Assembly: GCA_964614065.1 (NCBI GenBank)
Contig: CAZTJJ010000002.1
Span: 6,878 to 70,877 of the forward strand
DNA from: an uncultured Thermotogae bacterium
GTDB lineage: Bacteria; Bipolaricaulota; Bipolaricaulia; M55B111
DNA length: 64,000 nt
Direction: 5' to 3'
Of this stretch, positions 2 through 6,593 are shown in pieces. The position numbers were made by a program, and so were the translations under genes. Each line of letters starts with the position of its first letter. Within the stretch, counting starts at the first letter, position 1. The notes under the pieces were generated by a model. The model had not been told where the DNA came from. It did no database searches and worked only from the letters and a program-made list of their open reading frames with translations.

Positions 2-1762
2 GACCTGTACTCGCCCGACAATATCACTATCCTACATCACCTTAAGGCGGCATTAAAAGCACAAGAGTTCTTTAAAAAGGATGAAGATTACATCGTCAAG
101 GACGGACGAGTCATACTTGTAGACGAATTTACTGGCAGGCTCATGCCCGATCGACGTCTATCAGATGGATTACACCAGGCTATTGAGGCCAAGGAGGGGA
201 TGATGATTCAGCGTGAAAATCAGACCTTGGCTCAAATAACTCTACAGAATTTCTTCCTGCTTTACGATGGTCTAAGCGGTATGACTGGTACTGCAAAGAC
301 TGAAGAGGACGAGTTCGAAGAGATTTACAATCTCGAAGTGGTAGTTATACCCACCAACAAACCATTGGACAGAGATAGCAAACCTGACGTTATCTTTAAG
401 ACCAAAAAGGCGAAATACAACGCTATTACTGACGAAGTAGAAAGACTCAACGAGAAAAAGCGTCCTGTCCTGGTTGGAACAAATGCCATAGAAAAATCCG
501 AGAAGCTTAGCAAACTGCTAAAAAAACTTGGCCTCTCTCATGAGGTACTTAACGCCAAAAACCACGAGCGGGAGGCTGAAATAATCAAAGATGCTGGACA
601 ACCGGGCGCAGTCACTATCGCAACCAACATGGCGGGCAGAGGCACCGATATCAAGTTAGGAGAAGGTGTTAAAGAGGTAGGTGGATTACACGTTTTGGGA
701 ACGCAACGTCATGAGAGCAGAAGAATTGACAACCAGCTTCGGGGTAGATCCGGACGACAGGGAGATCCAGGTTCCTCACAATTTTACCTTTCCCTGGAAG
801 ATGATCTATTACGAATATTCGGCGGTGACCGGATTGATTCAATAATGGATAAGGTTGGACTTGAAGACGGACAAGCAATTGAGCATCCACTGCTCACGAA
901 AGCAATTCGGCGAGCTCAGAAAAAAGTCGAGGGCTTGAACTATGAACGAAGAAAGAATGTGTTAAAATACGACCAAGTCCTCGCCCAACAGAGAAAGGCA
1001 ATATATGAACTACGGGACCATTTCGTACTAACAGAGAAAGAGAGTACATGGTCGGAAATCGACGGCTACATCCAACCGTTATTAACAGATTATGCTACGG
1101 AACTAGTAGAAAAGCACGGTGTAAATAGGAAGGGAGACGAGGAGGACATAGAGGGACTCATCAACGAATTGGAAGCATTTGATAACTTTGATAAGCCAAG
1201 TTTTACCCAAGACAACCATGATTACGATAGCTTTGTCGCCGATCTGATAGTTTCCAGCTGGGAAAAGCAATTGGAGGGGTTTAAAGACAAGGAACCGATT
1301 ACTCCTGAAATCATTAAATCAATTATAGCAAATATTATCGACCGGAAATGGAGAGAGCACCTATACTTAATAGACGATCTCAAGGCAGGTATCGGTTGGT
1401 CTTCCTACGGTGGTAAAGACCCACTGGTTGAATTCAAACGTGAATCCTATCGCCTATTTCAGAACCTCGAAAATGCAATTAGGAAGGATCTTGTCGATTT
1501 CCTAGTCAAAACCCGTATCGAAGTCTCAAAAACCACAAAACCTGTGGAGTCCGAAGTACCTACTTCAAGCTTAAGGCTGATGAGAGGAGACAATCCTCAG
1601 GGACTTGAAACAAACAAAGACTCCAATAATCAATCCAAAAGCGGAAAAGGCACAAAGGACAATCCACAGCAAAGAATTGTAGATGAAGAACCGGGAAGGA
1701 ACGACCCCTGTCCATGCGGTAGCGGTAAAAAATATAAATACTGTTGTGGAGCTGATGACTAG
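2..1762 (+). CDS. secA: Preprotein translocase ATPase SecA (5'-partial; frame is open from the window start)
   Basis: VDEFTGRLMP, GMTGTA, TNMAGRGTDI and RHESRRIDNQLRGRSGRQGDPG motifs; C-terminal SEC-C zinc motif CPCGSGKKYKYCC. The frame upstream of the ORF-track ATG (143) also reads as SecA (DEDYIVKDGRVILVDEFTG). Confidence 0.98.
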   Translation, partial: DLYSPDNITILHHLKAALKAQEFFKKDEDYIVKDGRVILVDEFTGRLMPDRRLSDGLHQAIEAKEGMMIQRENQTLAQITLQNFFLLYDGLSGMTGTAKTEEDEFEEIYNLEVVVIPTNKPLDRDSKPDVIFKTKKAKYNAITDEVERLNEKKRPVLVGTNAIEKSEKLSKLLKKLGLSHEVLNAKNHEREAEIIKDAGQPGAVTIATNMAGRGTDIKLGEGVKEVGGLHVLGTQRHESRRIDNQLRGRSGRQGDPGSSQFYLSLEDDLLRIFGGDRIDSIMDKVGLEDGQAIEHPLLTKAIRRAQKKVEGLNYERRKNVLKYDQVLAQQRKAIYELRDHFVLTEKESTWSEIDGYIQPLLTDYATELVEKHGVNRKGDEEDIEGLINELEAFDNFDKPSFTQDNHDYDSFVADLIVSSWEKQLEGFKDKEPITPEIIKSIIANIIDRKWREHLYLIDDLKAGIGWSSYGGKDPLVEFKRESYRLFQNLENAIRKDLVDFLVKTRIEVSKTTKPVESEVPTSSLRLMRGDNPQGLETNKDSNNQSKSGKGTKDNPQQRIVDEEPGRNDPCPCGSGKKYKYCCGADD

Positions 1763-1818
1763 GGGATAGTGACTAATACTTATCTTAAATATCATCGGTC
1801 AAAACGCACTTTATTTTA

Positions 1819-1846
1819 TTGACTTTTCGTCCTTACCTGTTATAAT
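1819..1846 (+). promoter_or_regulatory. Sigma70-type promoter with extended -10
   Basis: TTGACT (1819-1824), 16-bp spacer, TATAAT (1841-1846) preceded by TGT (TGn extended -10). Confidence 0.75.
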
Positions 1847-1896
1847 CATTTTAGGTTATAGTTTACAACATTATTTTTAGCTAAAGGAGGTGCAGT

Positions 1897-1995
1897 ATGA
1901 TTACTATATCTGTAACAGCGGCAGTTCTAGGATTTTTCTGGGCTTTTTGGGGAGCTGCAGTTATCTCGCTTCTGTGCTGTAATCCTTGTTGTTAA
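1897..1995 (+). CDS. Small hydrophobic protein with C-terminal CCNPCC (32 aa; below the ORF-track cutoff)
   Basis: Strong SD AAAGGAGGTG six bases before ATG; translates to MITISVTAAVLGFFWAFWGAAVISLLCCNPCC*; lies directly behind the consensus promoter. Confidence 0.7.
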   Translation: MITISVTAAVLGFFWAFWGAAVISLLCCNPCC

Positions 1996-2091
1996 TCACC
2001 GCAAGAACTTTCTTTTCCAGCACTACTTTTCAGATTACGAAGGAGACATTTTGGCTAGGCTCAGTTAACTTGAAAACGTTGTTGTAAGTGG

Positions 2092-2907
2092 GTGATTAGC
2101 TTGTTGAAGTTTAGGTCTTATTCCGTTGCAGTTTTGCTTTGTTTGTTTATATTATCATTTAGCATCGCCACAGTCGGGAGTGAAGTTACCGACAAGCTTA
2201 CACGAGTGATACAATTAAAAGTCGGATTGGATTCAGACCTTTTCCGGGTAATTGAAACGAAATACCGAGGCGAAAGGTTGATCCTTATAGTTGTTTATGG
2301 ATCTGAACGGGCATTGAACAGCGACCTCGGCGATCCCGTTAAAGCGGCTTTCAGAAAATATAAGGGTCAAAATCCTCTAGGGATAACCGTTCTTTCTAAA
2401 AGTAAATCAACAAAGTTTCACCCGTATGCGCTCAGGACCGTTAGAGGGGACGAAAAATTATCAATACAGAACGTTACAGGGATAACCGAGGGTTTCTTGG
2501 AAGGTGAAATGCCGAAAGAAGTTCCAATAGGCGAAGAAACTTTCTGGGGGAGCATGGGTGTGGTTACACTAGGAAAAGATTTTCCTGTGAATTCACCTTT
2601 CAAGGTACATTATGGAACTAGAAGTGCTTCCTTCTCACCACAAACAAGTACACAAACTCAAGTTGCTTCAATGGAGGAGCAATCAGAAACTCAGGACACC
2701 GGCAAACTATCCCCAACTGTCAACAAGCCATCGACTACAAACAACCCAGGAAATGTAGGCAATAATACTGACAACCAATGTCAATCAAAGAATCAGTGTC
2801 AAACCTCGACTTCACCATCAAACTGTGGTCAAACGCAGGGATCGGGCCTATTACTAGGTGGAATTGGGGCATCACTGCTGATGCTAACGCTCTCGCTTCT
2901 TTTTTAG
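2092..2907 (+). CDS. Hypothetical exported protein with S/T/N/Q-rich linker and C-terminal membrane anchor
   Basis: N-terminal hydrophobic signal-like segment, low-complexity linker, three Cys, then a terminal hydrophobic tail GSGLLLGGIGASLLMLTLSLLF. Confidence 0.75.
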   Translation: MISLLKFRSYSVAVLLCLFILSFSIATVGSEVTDKLTRVIQLKVGLDSDLFRVIETKYRGERLILIVVYGSERALNSDLGDPVKAAFRKYKGQNPLGITVLSKSKSTKFHPYALRTVRGDEKLSIQNVTGITEGFLEGEMPKEVPIGEETFWGSMGVVTLGKDFPVNSPFKVHYGTRSASFSPQTSTQTQVASMEEQSETQDTGKLSPTVNKPSTTNNPGNVGNNTDNQCQSKNQCQTSTSPSNCGQTQGSGLLLGGIGASLLMLTLSLLF

Positions 2908-2943
2908 AGAAATAAAACAGGCTCAAGAGAAAAAATTAACATA

Positions 2944-2981
2944 ATATAGGGCGGAAAACCTAAGTGTTTTCCGCCCTATAT
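2944..2981. terminator. Bidirectional terminator-like hairpin between convergent genes
   Basis: Perfect 16-bp inverted repeat ATATAGGGCGGAAAAC / GTTTTCCGCCCTATAT. Confidence 0.75.
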
Positions 2982-2999
2982 GTTCTTCACATAAGATAG

Positions 3000-3380
3000 C
3001 TATTCAGAAGTAAGTTTTTCGTATTCTTCCTCTGACAGAAGGCCAGCGAATTCCTCTTCGTCTTCAATGTCCAATTCCACTAGCCAACCATCTTCCCAAG
3101 GAGACTCATTGATCAATTCTGGTGCACTCTCTAAATCTTCGTTTACCGACGTTACCACACCGGAAATAGGAGCTTTCACATTTGAAACCGATTTAACTGA
3201 TTCTACCACAACCAATTCATCACCCTTTGCGAACTCCTCACCCGTCTCGGGCAACTCAACAAAAACTATGTCCCCTAGCTCATTCTGAGCAAAATCAGTT
3301 ATTCCAAGCCTTGCCACGTGACCCGTCTTTTCTACCCAATCGTGATCTTCTGTATATTTCAGATCTGTCGGTTTAGCCAT
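3000..3380 (-). CDS. gcvH: Glycine cleavage system H protein
   Basis: GITDFAQNELGDIVFVELP and lipoyl-Lys motif VVESVKSVS, INESPWEDGWL; start placed at the ATG after SD GAGGAGG. Confidence 0.95.
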   Translation of the reverse strand: MAKPTDLKYTEDHDWVEKTGHVARLGITDFAQNELGDIVFVELPETGEEFAKGDELVVVESVKSVSNVKAPISGVVTSVNEDLESAPELINESPWEDGWLVELDIEDEEEFAGLLSEEEYEKLTSE

Positions 3381-3581
3381 AATACCTCCTCTTGCCAAGA
3401 TAATATGATACTATCGAATTCTCCCCTGTTAATTCAACTTATGTCCAGATATTCTCGAGAAGATTAACACCACGTGATCAAACCTTTGACCTCCATAGCT
3501 GAAAACAGGGAAGCAATAATTGATTACAGTCGTCATTGCAACAAATAAACTCATTAAGTATATTTACTCGGTGAAATCTAC

Positions 3582-4589
3582 ATGGACTGTGTAATTTTAG
3601 CCGCAGGTAAGGGCACTCGAATGAACTCATGTTACCCCAAAGTTCTACACAAGCTCGGGAAAGTGACTATGATTGAGCATTTACTTGAAGCTTTACATCC
3701 ATTAGAATTAACCAATATCATAATAGTCACAGGTTATAAACATGAAATGGTGCAAAAGGCACTGTGTGATAGGGATGTAAAATTTGCCTATCAACAAAAG
3801 CAGCTGGGAACTGCTCATGCTCTCACTCAGGCACAAACGAAAATTCGAAGTAACAAATTTCTAGTAATGCCTGGTGATCTACCTCTAGTTACTGCATCCT
3901 CACTGTCCAAATTCCTGGAACAGTCCAACAAGTCTGGCCGGGATTTTACTTTATTAACGACTGAAAAATCTGATCCAACCGGATACGGACGAATTGTAAG
4001 AGACACTACGGGACGAGTGCTCAGAATAGTAGAAGAGCAGGATGTAAGTACAGAGGAAAGTTCCATCAACGAAATAAACACCGGAATTTATTCATTCAAA
4101 AACGATCCGTTACTTTGGAACAAATTGGACCAACTGGAAAAGGATAACGCTCAGGGCGAATATTATCTGACGGACCTGGTTGAAATCTACAACGACGAAG
4201 GGATCGAAGTATGGGCCCCAAAAAGCACTAACTCCGAGGAGTTCATGGGTGTCAACAACAGAATGGATTTAACTAACGCAATCAATATAATGAAGAAACG
4301 CAAGTTCAACCAGCTCATGAGTCACGGGGTTACCATTGTCGACCCTGGTTCCACTTTCATTGGTACCAAGGTCGAAATAGCTCAAGATTCTCTAGTCAAC
4401 CCTTTTACGATGTTGACAGGGGAAACAGTAATAGGGGAAAGATCGACCATCGGACCACATGTAGAAATCAATGACTCTAAAATACATAACGATGTGGAGG
4501 TCAAACATTCGATCATAGAAAGTTCAACTGTAAGATCTGGATCTGTAGTTGGACCTTTCCAACATATAGGACCTGAATCTACCACATAA
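3582..4589 (+). CDS. glmU: GlmU-like UDP-GlcNAc pyrophosphorylase, C-terminally short (335 aa)
   Basis: ILAAGKGTRM, QLGTAHA, YGRIVRD, EYYLTD and GVNNR motifs plus the start of the hexapeptide beta-helix; canonical glmU-prs-rplY synteny. Confidence 0.88.
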   Translation: MDCVILAAGKGTRMNSCYPKVLHKLGKVTMIEHLLEALHPLELTNIIIVTGYKHEMVQKALCDRDVKFAYQQKQLGTAHALTQAQTKIRSNKFLVMPGDLPLVTASSLSKFLEQSNKSGRDFTLLTTEKSDPTGYGRIVRDTTGRVLRIVEEQDVSTEESSINEINTGIYSFKNDPLLWNKLDQLEKDNAQGEYYLTDLVEIYNDEGIEVWAPKSTNSEEFMGVNNRMDLTNAINIMKKRKFNQLMSHGVTIVDPGSTFIGTKVEIAQDSLVNPFTMLTGETVIGERSTIGPHVEINDSKIHNDVEVKHSIIESSTVRSGSVVGPFQHIGPESTT

Positions 4590-5885: not shown

Positions 5886-6593
5886 ATGCTGACTTTACAG
5901 GCAAAAAAACGAAAAGCGGAAGTTAACCCTAATTCTCTGAGACACGACGGAAAACTACCCGCTGTATTGTACGGACCCGATCGAGAAACGGTAAGTCTTA
6001 CTATAGTTAAGAAAGAACTAACTGAGTTGATGAAAGAAATAACCAGGAGTACAAGACTGAACCTAAAACTAGACGACACAGCTAACAAGGTATTTCTAAA
6101 AGATATTCAATATAACTACTTGACGGATGAACCTGTCCACTTAGATTTCTATGAGGTGGAGGATGATCACGTTGTAGAAATGGAAATACCTATCATTACC
6201 GTGGGGACACCCGAGGGAGTCAACTCAGGAGGAATATTGGACCAATTAATGGAGACTATTATGGTCAGCGGAAAAGCTAAAGATATCCCCGAGATAATTA
6301 AGTTAGATGTGGAAGAGCTACAAATTGGGGATTCCATCCACGTATCCGACCTGGAAATGGAAGGACTCAAGCCCCAAACACCGCAGGATAGGGCGGTATT
6401 ATCCATACTATCGCCTCGAAAGGAAATCAAAATCGACCTGACCGAACCCACAATCGGCGAAGAACTACTGGTAGAAGAAGAGGAATTAGAAGCCGAAGAA
6501 GAGGAACTGGAAGAGGAATTAGAAGCCGAAGAAGAGGAACTGGAAGAGGAATTAGAAGCCGAAGAAGAGGAACTGGAAGAGGAATTAGAATAA
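5886..6593 (+). CDS. rplY: 50S ribosomal protein L25/Ctc (long form) with acidic repeat tail
   Basis: LRHDGKLPAVLYG, KDIQYNYLTDEPVHLDFYEV, IPEIIKLDVEELQIGDSIHVSDL; located after prs. Confidence 0.95.
   Translation: MLTLQAKKRKAEVNPNSLRHDGKLPAVLYGPDRETVSLTIVKKELTELMKEITRSTRLNLKLDDTANKVFLKDIQYNYLTDEPVHLDFYEVEDDHVVEMEIPIITVGTPEGVNSGGILDQLMETIMVSGKAKDIPEIIKLDVEELQIGDSIHVSDLEMEGLKPQTPQDRAVLSILSPRKEIKIDLTEPTIGEELLVEEEELEAEEEELEEELEAEEEELEEELEAEEEELEEELE
6477..6590 (+). repeat. Perfect 33-bp coding tandem repeat (3 full copies plus 15 bp)
   Basis: Unit GAAGAGGAATTAGAAGCCGAAGAAGAGGAACTG (EEELEAEEEEL) at 6477, 6510 and 6543, partial copy at 6576. Confidence 0.97.

Follow-up and report, generated by a model that had tools for sequence, protein, structure and literature searches.

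The 32-codon open reading frame (ORF) that separates secA from the gene of an exported protein in an uncultured bacterium of the candidate phylum Bipolaricaulota raises two questions: whether it is a gene at all, and, if so, what its product does in the membrane. The ORF lies in a window of 64,000 nucleotides, the whole stretch of DNA that was analysed and to which all coordinates refer; the downstream gene is termed c1. An earlier sequence-only reading placed a promoter, a Shine-Dalgarno (SD) sequence and a 32-aa ORF in the region, and the sequence read-out and the ORF list confirm each of them at exactly these positions.

Organization of the locus

The following features were recognized around the ORF.

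2–1762, plus strand: 3' part of secA (Pfam SecA P-loop, Wing/Scaffold and SEC-C motif), the upstream neighbour, outside the two-gene unit
1819–1846, plus strand: sigma-70-type promoter, TTGACT (1819–1824), a 16-nt spacer and the extended -10 element TGtTATAAT (1838–1846)
1883–1892, plus strand: SD sequence AAAGGAGGTG, 4 nt ahead of the microprotein ATG
1897–1995, plus strand: microprotein gene, 32 aa, ATG at 1897, stop codon at 1993–1995, tail CCNPCC
1996–2100, plus strand: spacer between the microprotein gene and c1, without a terminator, with a GGTGAT SD at 2091–2096
2092–2907, plus strand: c1 ORF as listed, its likely true start being the TTG at 2101
2944–2981, no strand assigned: 16-bp hairpin between the convergent c1 and gcvH genes, a likely terminator of the microprotein-c1 unit

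The microprotein promoter matches 11/12 of the consensus and has the TG extension, and it is the sole plus-strand site in a consensus scan of positions 1600–3500. The other three promoter-like sites in this interval match at 9–10 of 12 positions, and all are on the minus strand, at a distance from the microprotein ORF. These four sites compare with 3.1 +/- 1.9 in shuffled sequences, so the signals alone are no proof of a gene; the proof is supplied by conservation.

The promoter is followed in order by the microprotein gene (perfect SD, ATG start), c1 (weaker SD, TTG start) and the putative terminator. No terminator-like site was found between the microprotein ORF and c1 in the scan of 1600–3500. 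The hairpin at 2944–2981 was called by the scan on the minus strand; since its stem is palindromic, it would also form in the plus-strand transcript and could serve there as a terminator. With a single strong promoter, no terminator before c1 and a hairpin after it, the microprotein gene and c1 are predicted to constitute one transcription unit that starts from the strong promoter ahead of the microprotein. GGTGAT followed by a TTG or ATG start is conserved ahead of c1 in relatives, and therefore c1 of the window likely starts at the TTG at 2101.

The predicted fold of the spacer RNA is no better than that of shuffled sequences (z = +0.85), and a search of positions 1500–3600 against Rfam at E <= 10 returned only chance-level matches to eukaryotic and viral families. 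The spacer also contains, at 2040–2069, an AAGGAG followed after 6 nt by a TTG that opens a five-codon frame. This frame is probably due to chance, since it is unconserved and the spacers of relatives are about 30–45 nt long.

Downstream of c1 lie the convergent gcvH, a GlmU-like gene, prs and the gene of ribosomal protein L25. The L25/Ctc protein (5886–6593; Pfam L25p and TL5_C) ends in a long, almost perfect acidic repeat of Glu, Leu and Ala, an unusual tail that is perhaps a salt adaptation.

A conserved single-pass microprotein with a variable Cys tail

The proposal of a new gene had been made to depend on conservation in relatives that keep the secA synteny, and the ORF is indeed present in all 18 other genomes of the window's family, Ca. 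Bipolaricaulota/Acetothermia, that were searched by tblastn with the 32-aa product. In total, 23 of 41 related genomes gave matches at E <= 10; outside the window's family these were weak and limited to 4 of 22 genomes (E 0.088–0.32). An intact frame of 29–44 codons behind a GGAGG-type SD was observed in 19 of the 20 stored tblastn loci, the twentieth (L020) being unrelated. The GGAGG-type SD precedes the ORF in all 19 family loci, and likewise precedes the copies in other families. Of the 28 distinct upstream regions compared in the family, 20 have a promoter of the type TTGAnn...TAnAAT downstream of secA and ahead of the ORF; the remaining eight belong mostly to paralogues and have TTGACA with a poorer -10 element.

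The invariant positions in 17 aligned family sequences are LGFFW, a second Trp, one Ala and two Cys. The codon analysis covered 18 ungapped core codons in 26 distinct sequences, which represent 43 copies. Variable columns at codon positions 1, 2 and 3 number 11, 3 and 16 of the 18 codons, respectively, and the estimates are pS 0.72, pN 0.13 and pN/pS 0.18, with synonymous sites near saturation. This codon pattern indicates that purifying selection acts on the amino-acid sequence of the microprotein, and the ORF is almost certainly a real conserved gene.

The AlphaFold2 model, built from an alignment of 21 rows, comprises a single helix at residues 2–27 and a coil tail at residues 28–32 (mean pLDDT 84), in agreement with the one transmembrane (TM) helix suggested earlier. 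The microprotein is best read as a single-pass integral-membrane protein. Ile, Thr and Val abound in its first 5–10 residues, where one Asp or Glu is frequent and a basic residue is almost never seen; by the usual rules this composition weakly suggests an orientation with the N-terminus outside and the C-terminus inside.

Across the phylum, the only near-invariant part of the microprotein is the Phe-Trp core. The two vicinal Cys pairs that the sequence-only reading emphasized are present in this window, but they do not hold for the family, where only two Cys are invariant. The tail Cys in the window's family form CxxC or CxxxC, and the four-Cys tail of this window recurs in one type of stand-alone paralogue. 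In family f4 the tail is a CxxxC that follows a Trp pair, and in family f6 Cys pairs are found at both ends of the peptide. Microproteins of f5, f7 and most of f10 have no Cys. A Cys tail had been ascribed to the downstream protein as well; it is seen in c1 of the window and of one family relative, but is missing from the other 17 distinct aligned family sequences.

In several f6 loci (L066, L067, L070, L075, L081 and L092) the c1 linker is packed with Cys before the C-terminal helix, in the form of CxxC and C-D-P-C repeats. By eye, Cys-rich c1 linkers are found only where the peptide has Cys (f6, this window and L018), and Cys-free microproteins go with Cys-free linkers; co-variation is possible. 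Strict co-variation is absent, since many Cys-bearing peptides have Cys-free partners.

The microprotein is encoded by a single copy in the window's genome. A scan of genome contigs with a word specific to the window's family gave two matches outside Bipolaricaulota (Acidoferrum and Acidiferrales; E 3e-4 and 8e-4), and neither contains a peptide-like ORF. Twelve records of metagenome-assembled genomes (MAGs) titled 'uncultured Thermotogae bacterium' (within L022–L045) bear the Bipolaricaulota gene pair and synteny, and one record with such a title is the same contig as a genome assigned to the window's family. The titles of those 12 records look like mislabels.

The microprotein has no family in Pfam, NCBIfam or Rfam, consistent with its first description as an unannotated membrane microprotein of no recognized family. 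The window peptide itself matches no Pfam family. When 31 members were compared one by one at E <= 10, 13 Pfam families were listed, none of them in more than two members, and six NCBIfam families, none in more than three; models of the tiny_TM_bacill or YjcZ type are absent among these six. The sorting-signal model JDVT-CTERM (NF033191) matched three of the 31 members below its cut-off (best E 0.025); signals of this type end larger exported proteins, whereas the microprotein is a free-standing gene with its own SD. Public protein sets contain 71 entries at E <= 0.01 among 5.8 billion clusters, all without a Pfam family and named 'hypothetical protein' at most. No description of such a microprotein was found in the literature searched. 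Fused or longer forms were not observed either: the eight matches of 79–109 aa are ORFs called too long, with the peptide at their C-terminal end. The absence of a microprotein-c1 fusion is only weak evidence.

Two described groups resemble the microprotein in architecture. In the first, the shared features are an N-terminal TM helix followed by a Cys- and Gly-rich C-terminal tail, and a metal-transporter neighbour. PMC8749426 describes it as a small oligopeptide encoded downstream of feoB, with the motif Cx3-5Cx2-3Cx6-8C. One microprotein paralogue adjoins a CopA-type ATPase, as the feoB-linked protein adjoins a metal transporter. In contrast to the feoB-linked protein, the microprotein has a tail of 4–8 residues with 0–4 Cys and no basic linker, its partner is an exported beta-sandwich protein rather than feoB, and it occurs in a different phylum. 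The Pfam model of the feoB-linked family matches none of the 31 microprotein members at E <= 10, and there is no FeoB domain among the scanned microprotein neighbours. CYSTM (PMC2804304) is a eukaryotic tail-anchored Cys-rich TM module, for which chelation or redox chemistry at the membrane was proposed, and it likewise consists of a short membrane protein with one TM helix and a Cys cluster. The Cys cluster of the microprotein, unlike that of CYSTM, comes after the helix as the very last part of the chain, and some members lack it; no CYSTM model is among the 13 Pfam families listed at E <= 10 for the 31 members. Judged by these profile comparisons, the microprotein belongs to neither the feoB-linked family nor CYSTM.

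Pairing with an exported beta-sandwich protein

The c1 protein has about 260 aa (271 aa as listed). It consists of an N-terminal signal or anchor helix, a beta-sandwich of about 140 aa, a polar or acidic linker and a C-terminal TM helix. The beta-sandwich is modelled confidently (pLDDT about 80–96) and the linker is variable. The C-terminal helix is conserved in sequence, free of charges and ends the protein. We considered the c1 tail as a general sorting signal and rejected this idea because no other tail of this kind occurs in the window's genome. The helix is kept by c1 homologues of families f1, f3, f5, f6, f7 and f10. The two-domain (tandem) c1 forms of family f4 have no C-terminal helix, yet they are accompanied by the peptide.

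No Pfam or NCBIfam family matches c1, and 20 of its remote relatives gave nothing in Pfam except one sub-threshold DUF. The c1 profile retrieved 46 representative clusters among 1.84 billion proteins. A Foldseek comparison of c1 with the PDB gave nothing at E <= 0.001, and a look-up in the ESM Atlas gave no usable match. The best structural matches all have Z under 8, a range that the structural tool rates as possibly just a common arrangement:

YcdA (4r4g, 4r4g_A): Z 7.8, rmsd 2.8, 101 residues aligned (VIA-align); a common arrangement is possible
YjhA (3cfu): Z 6.6; possibly a common fold only
CrdA, a copper protein: Z 6.4; possibly a common fold only
MPT63 (1lmi): Z 5.7; possibly a common fold only
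CopC, a copper protein: Z 5.4; possibly a common fold only

The DUF4352-type Ig-like lipoproteins (YcdA and YjhA of B. subtilis, MPT63 of M. tuberculosis) are the best structural matches of c1, and like c1 they are exported, membrane-proximal, single-domain sandwiches. In contrast to these lipoproteins, c1 has no Pfam match and no lipobox, and a TM helix forms its C-terminal end. None of its Cys, His or Met residues is invariant. The c1 proteins apparently constitute an unnamed, phylum-restricted exported family.

In the window's family, c1 follows the microprotein gene on the same strand in 31 of 43 loci; the rest are three loci at which the contig ends right after the ORF and nine paralogues located elsewhere. 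The distance from the microprotein stop codon to c1 is 29–44 nt in genus g2 and 87–97 nt in g1 and g3. The upstream neighbour is secA in 28 of the 31 family loci with c1. In other families the pair adjoins other genes, and hence the secA linkage is local; it was rejected as functionally meaningful on this ground. The flanking genes, depending on the family, are secA, Arg/Orn decarboxylase and Maf, a histone-deacetylase-like gene, MutY, or MacB/FtsX.

Outside the family, 31 loci were inspected, and in 30 of them an ORF of 24–35 aa with a single aromatic TM helix and an SD directly precedes the c1 homologue on the same strand. The exception is G107, where the microprotein and c1 genes are unlinked. 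A new family was delimited as an ORF of 24–44 aa with an aromatic TM helix (Phe-Trp core) and an SD, followed directly and on the same strand by a c1-family gene; the window conforms to it, as do the 31 family loci and the 30 loci of other families. The c1 profile has matches in 123 of 184 genomes of the phylum, and a broader peptide profile in 116 of 184. Among the listed matches, a peptide is located at most 900 nt upstream of c1 on the same strand in 95 of 121 genomes, mostly at 14–155 nt. This count takes for each genome the c1 place that lies furthest upstream (121 genomes, 122 places), and all 150 listed peptide places; second-domain rows, nine unlisted c1 matches and 11 further peptide places fall outside it. 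On inspection by eye, five of the 26 misses (G022, G031, G086, G100 and G101) do have the peptide. Family f5 is among the misses: the profile, which did not cover it, detected 0 of 18, yet the peptide is present in all three inspected f5 loci.

The two genes are also absent together. In genera g8 and g23, c1 was found in 0/14 and 0/11 genomes and the peptide in 1/14 and 1/11, with weak E-values; the genomes with this joint absence include closed ones, 96–99% complete. We count it in favour of a partnership. The comparative counts come from related, mostly incomplete MAGs, and since the genomes of one phylum are kin, all pair counts overstate independence. Across the phylum, the pair is conserved while its neighbourhood changes.

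Stand-alone copies and the possible role of the pair

Many genomes have 2–5 peptide matches, and 54 of the 150 listed profile matches, some of them weak, are microprotein copies without c1. The 20 stand-alone loci that were fetched all contain intact ORFs, nearly all behind a strong GGAGG-type SD; one of them (L112) turned out to be linked to c1. In 11 genomes, a second copy is located about 150–210 nt upstream of, and on the same strand as, a gene for a CopA-type P1B ATPase with two HMA domains. These are seven of the eight genomes of genus g47 and four of the eight of g53, both in family f4 (ATPase-linked loci L096, L097, L099, L106, L107 and L108). A CDF cation-efflux gene lies just upstream of the microprotein copy in L098 and L107. 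Among the listed matches of the window's family, microprotein copies and CopA never occur on one contig.

Other stand-alone copies precede exported proteins that have a signal peptide and no Pfam family, one of 276–313 aa (L100, L102 and L103) and another, unrelated, of 274 aa (L110 and L111). These loci suggest that the peptide gene has been placed repeatedly ahead of exported-protein genes.

The reading that we favour, with a probability of about 0.55, is that of a single-pass microprotein that is produced along with c1 and cooperates with it in the membrane, with the terminal thiols as an accessory site at the interface. The microprotein gene would be the first cistron of a transcript that it shares with c1 and that starts at its own strong promoter. 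The c1 protein would be exported by the Sec pathway and held at the membrane by its charge-free C-terminal helix. The microprotein would be its membrane-embedded partner in presumed direct contact, with the aromatic helix and its invariant Phe-Trp core packing against the membrane segment or segments of c1 and thereby stabilizing or tethering the surface protein. As the f4 c1 proteins have the peptide and no C-terminal helix, a contact, if conserved, cannot involve that helix alone. The terminal Cys pair, situated at the membrane-water interface, could be an accessory thiol site for metal ligation, disulfide formation or acylation that was dropped in some lineages. We consider it probable that the microprotein is a functional partner of c1; any specific chemistry at its Cys residues is much less certain. 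The topology of the microprotein and the biological role of the pair are inferred. The partnership is called into question by the copies without c1, which precede a heavy-metal ATPase gene or the genes of two further, unrelated exported proteins, and by G107 with its unlinked pair.

Single-TM microproteins that are encoded in an operon with, or next to, the membrane partner that they bind include KdpF, CcoS/FixS, CydX, MgrB and AcrZ. The microprotein is similar to them in size class, in its single helix and in the position of its gene next to that of the partner. It has no sequence relation to them according to Pfam and NCBIfam, and its partner is a monotopic or bitopic exported protein rather than a transporter or an oxidase.

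The main rival to this partnership, and one compatible with it, is a metal-handling role in which the thiols bind a soft metal (Cu or Zn) at the membrane surface and either hand it on to transporters or surface proteins or sense it on their behalf, c1 being only one of several clients. We regard such a role as possible but rather doubtful. Tails with CxxC, CxxxC or CC would suit it, but the Cys spacing is variable, and the peptides of three families lack Cys entirely or in part. The second copies upstream of the P1B ATPase in 11 genomes, together with the CDF genes, are circumstantial support; however, the ATPase link is limited to two related genera, and no contig sharing between a copy and CopA was listed for the window's family. 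The matches of the c1 fold to CrdA and CopC are middling and lie below the level that the tool calls meaningful, and c1 has no invariant Cys, His or Met.

The three other explanations are each unlikely. A precursor peptide that undergoes modification or lipidation (RiPP-like, with Cys acylated, or prenylated at a CaaX-like end) would explain why the Cys motifs are at the very C-terminal end of the chain, and the sub-threshold JDVT-CTERM matches (3/31 members, E 0.025) point in the same direction; but no conserved gene for a modifying enzyme adjoins the locus, the neighbours vary, Cys is dispensable in three families, and it is the helix rather than the tail that is conserved, so this explanation seems improbable. 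A leader peptide or upstream ORF that serves only to control c1 expression through its own translation, an option of the sequence-only reading, fits the position directly upstream of c1 (gap 0–45 nt in many lineages) and an SD far stronger than that of c1. Against it stand the selection on the amino-acid sequence, with its low pN/pS and invariant residues, the intact stand-alone copies with their own promoter and SD, the conserved SD of c1 itself, and the spacer, which has neither a stable or unusual RNA structure nor an Rfam match; we consider it very improbable. Equally little can be said for a type I toxin or a self-acting membrane-perturbing peptide of a toxin-antitoxin or bacteriocin-like kind. 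Type I toxins such as Hok, TisB, Ibs and Fst are short hydrophobic peptides, at times present in several copies, and the microprotein is likewise small and very hydrophobic, with strong expression signals and up to five profile matches per genome. In contrast to these toxins, it has no antisense promoter, with no minus-strand promoter-like site at 1800–2600 in the consensus scan, and no Rfam match; it is a single-copy gene in the window's genome, has a fixed syntenic position among housekeeping genes across the phylum, and is paired with the gene of an exported protein rather than with an antisense RNA locus.

More speculatively, and with no great confidence, the microprotein and c1 could be a Bipolaricaulota-specific envelope module. 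A free helix of 30 residues would be the membrane subunit dedicated to anchoring or assembling a surface beta-sandwich protein. Through the interface thiols the module would be coupled to the metal or redox status, as would a copper-exporting ATPase in some lineages. If this is true, the microprotein would be a portable, thiol-bearing membrane adaptor for several exported and membrane clients.

Bacterial membrane microproteins are badly under-annotated, and this one has been called as a protein only sporadically, even though few small genes of the whole candidate phylum are as tightly conserved. Its exported partner is equally obscure. The pair offers a clean, testable case of a free 30-residue helix that serves a larger protein, and, for organisms so far never cultivated, an envelope marker specific to their phylum. 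A natural experiment on what interface thiols contribute to such a helix is provided by the variation of the Cys tail, together with the link of one paralogue to copper and zinc exporters.
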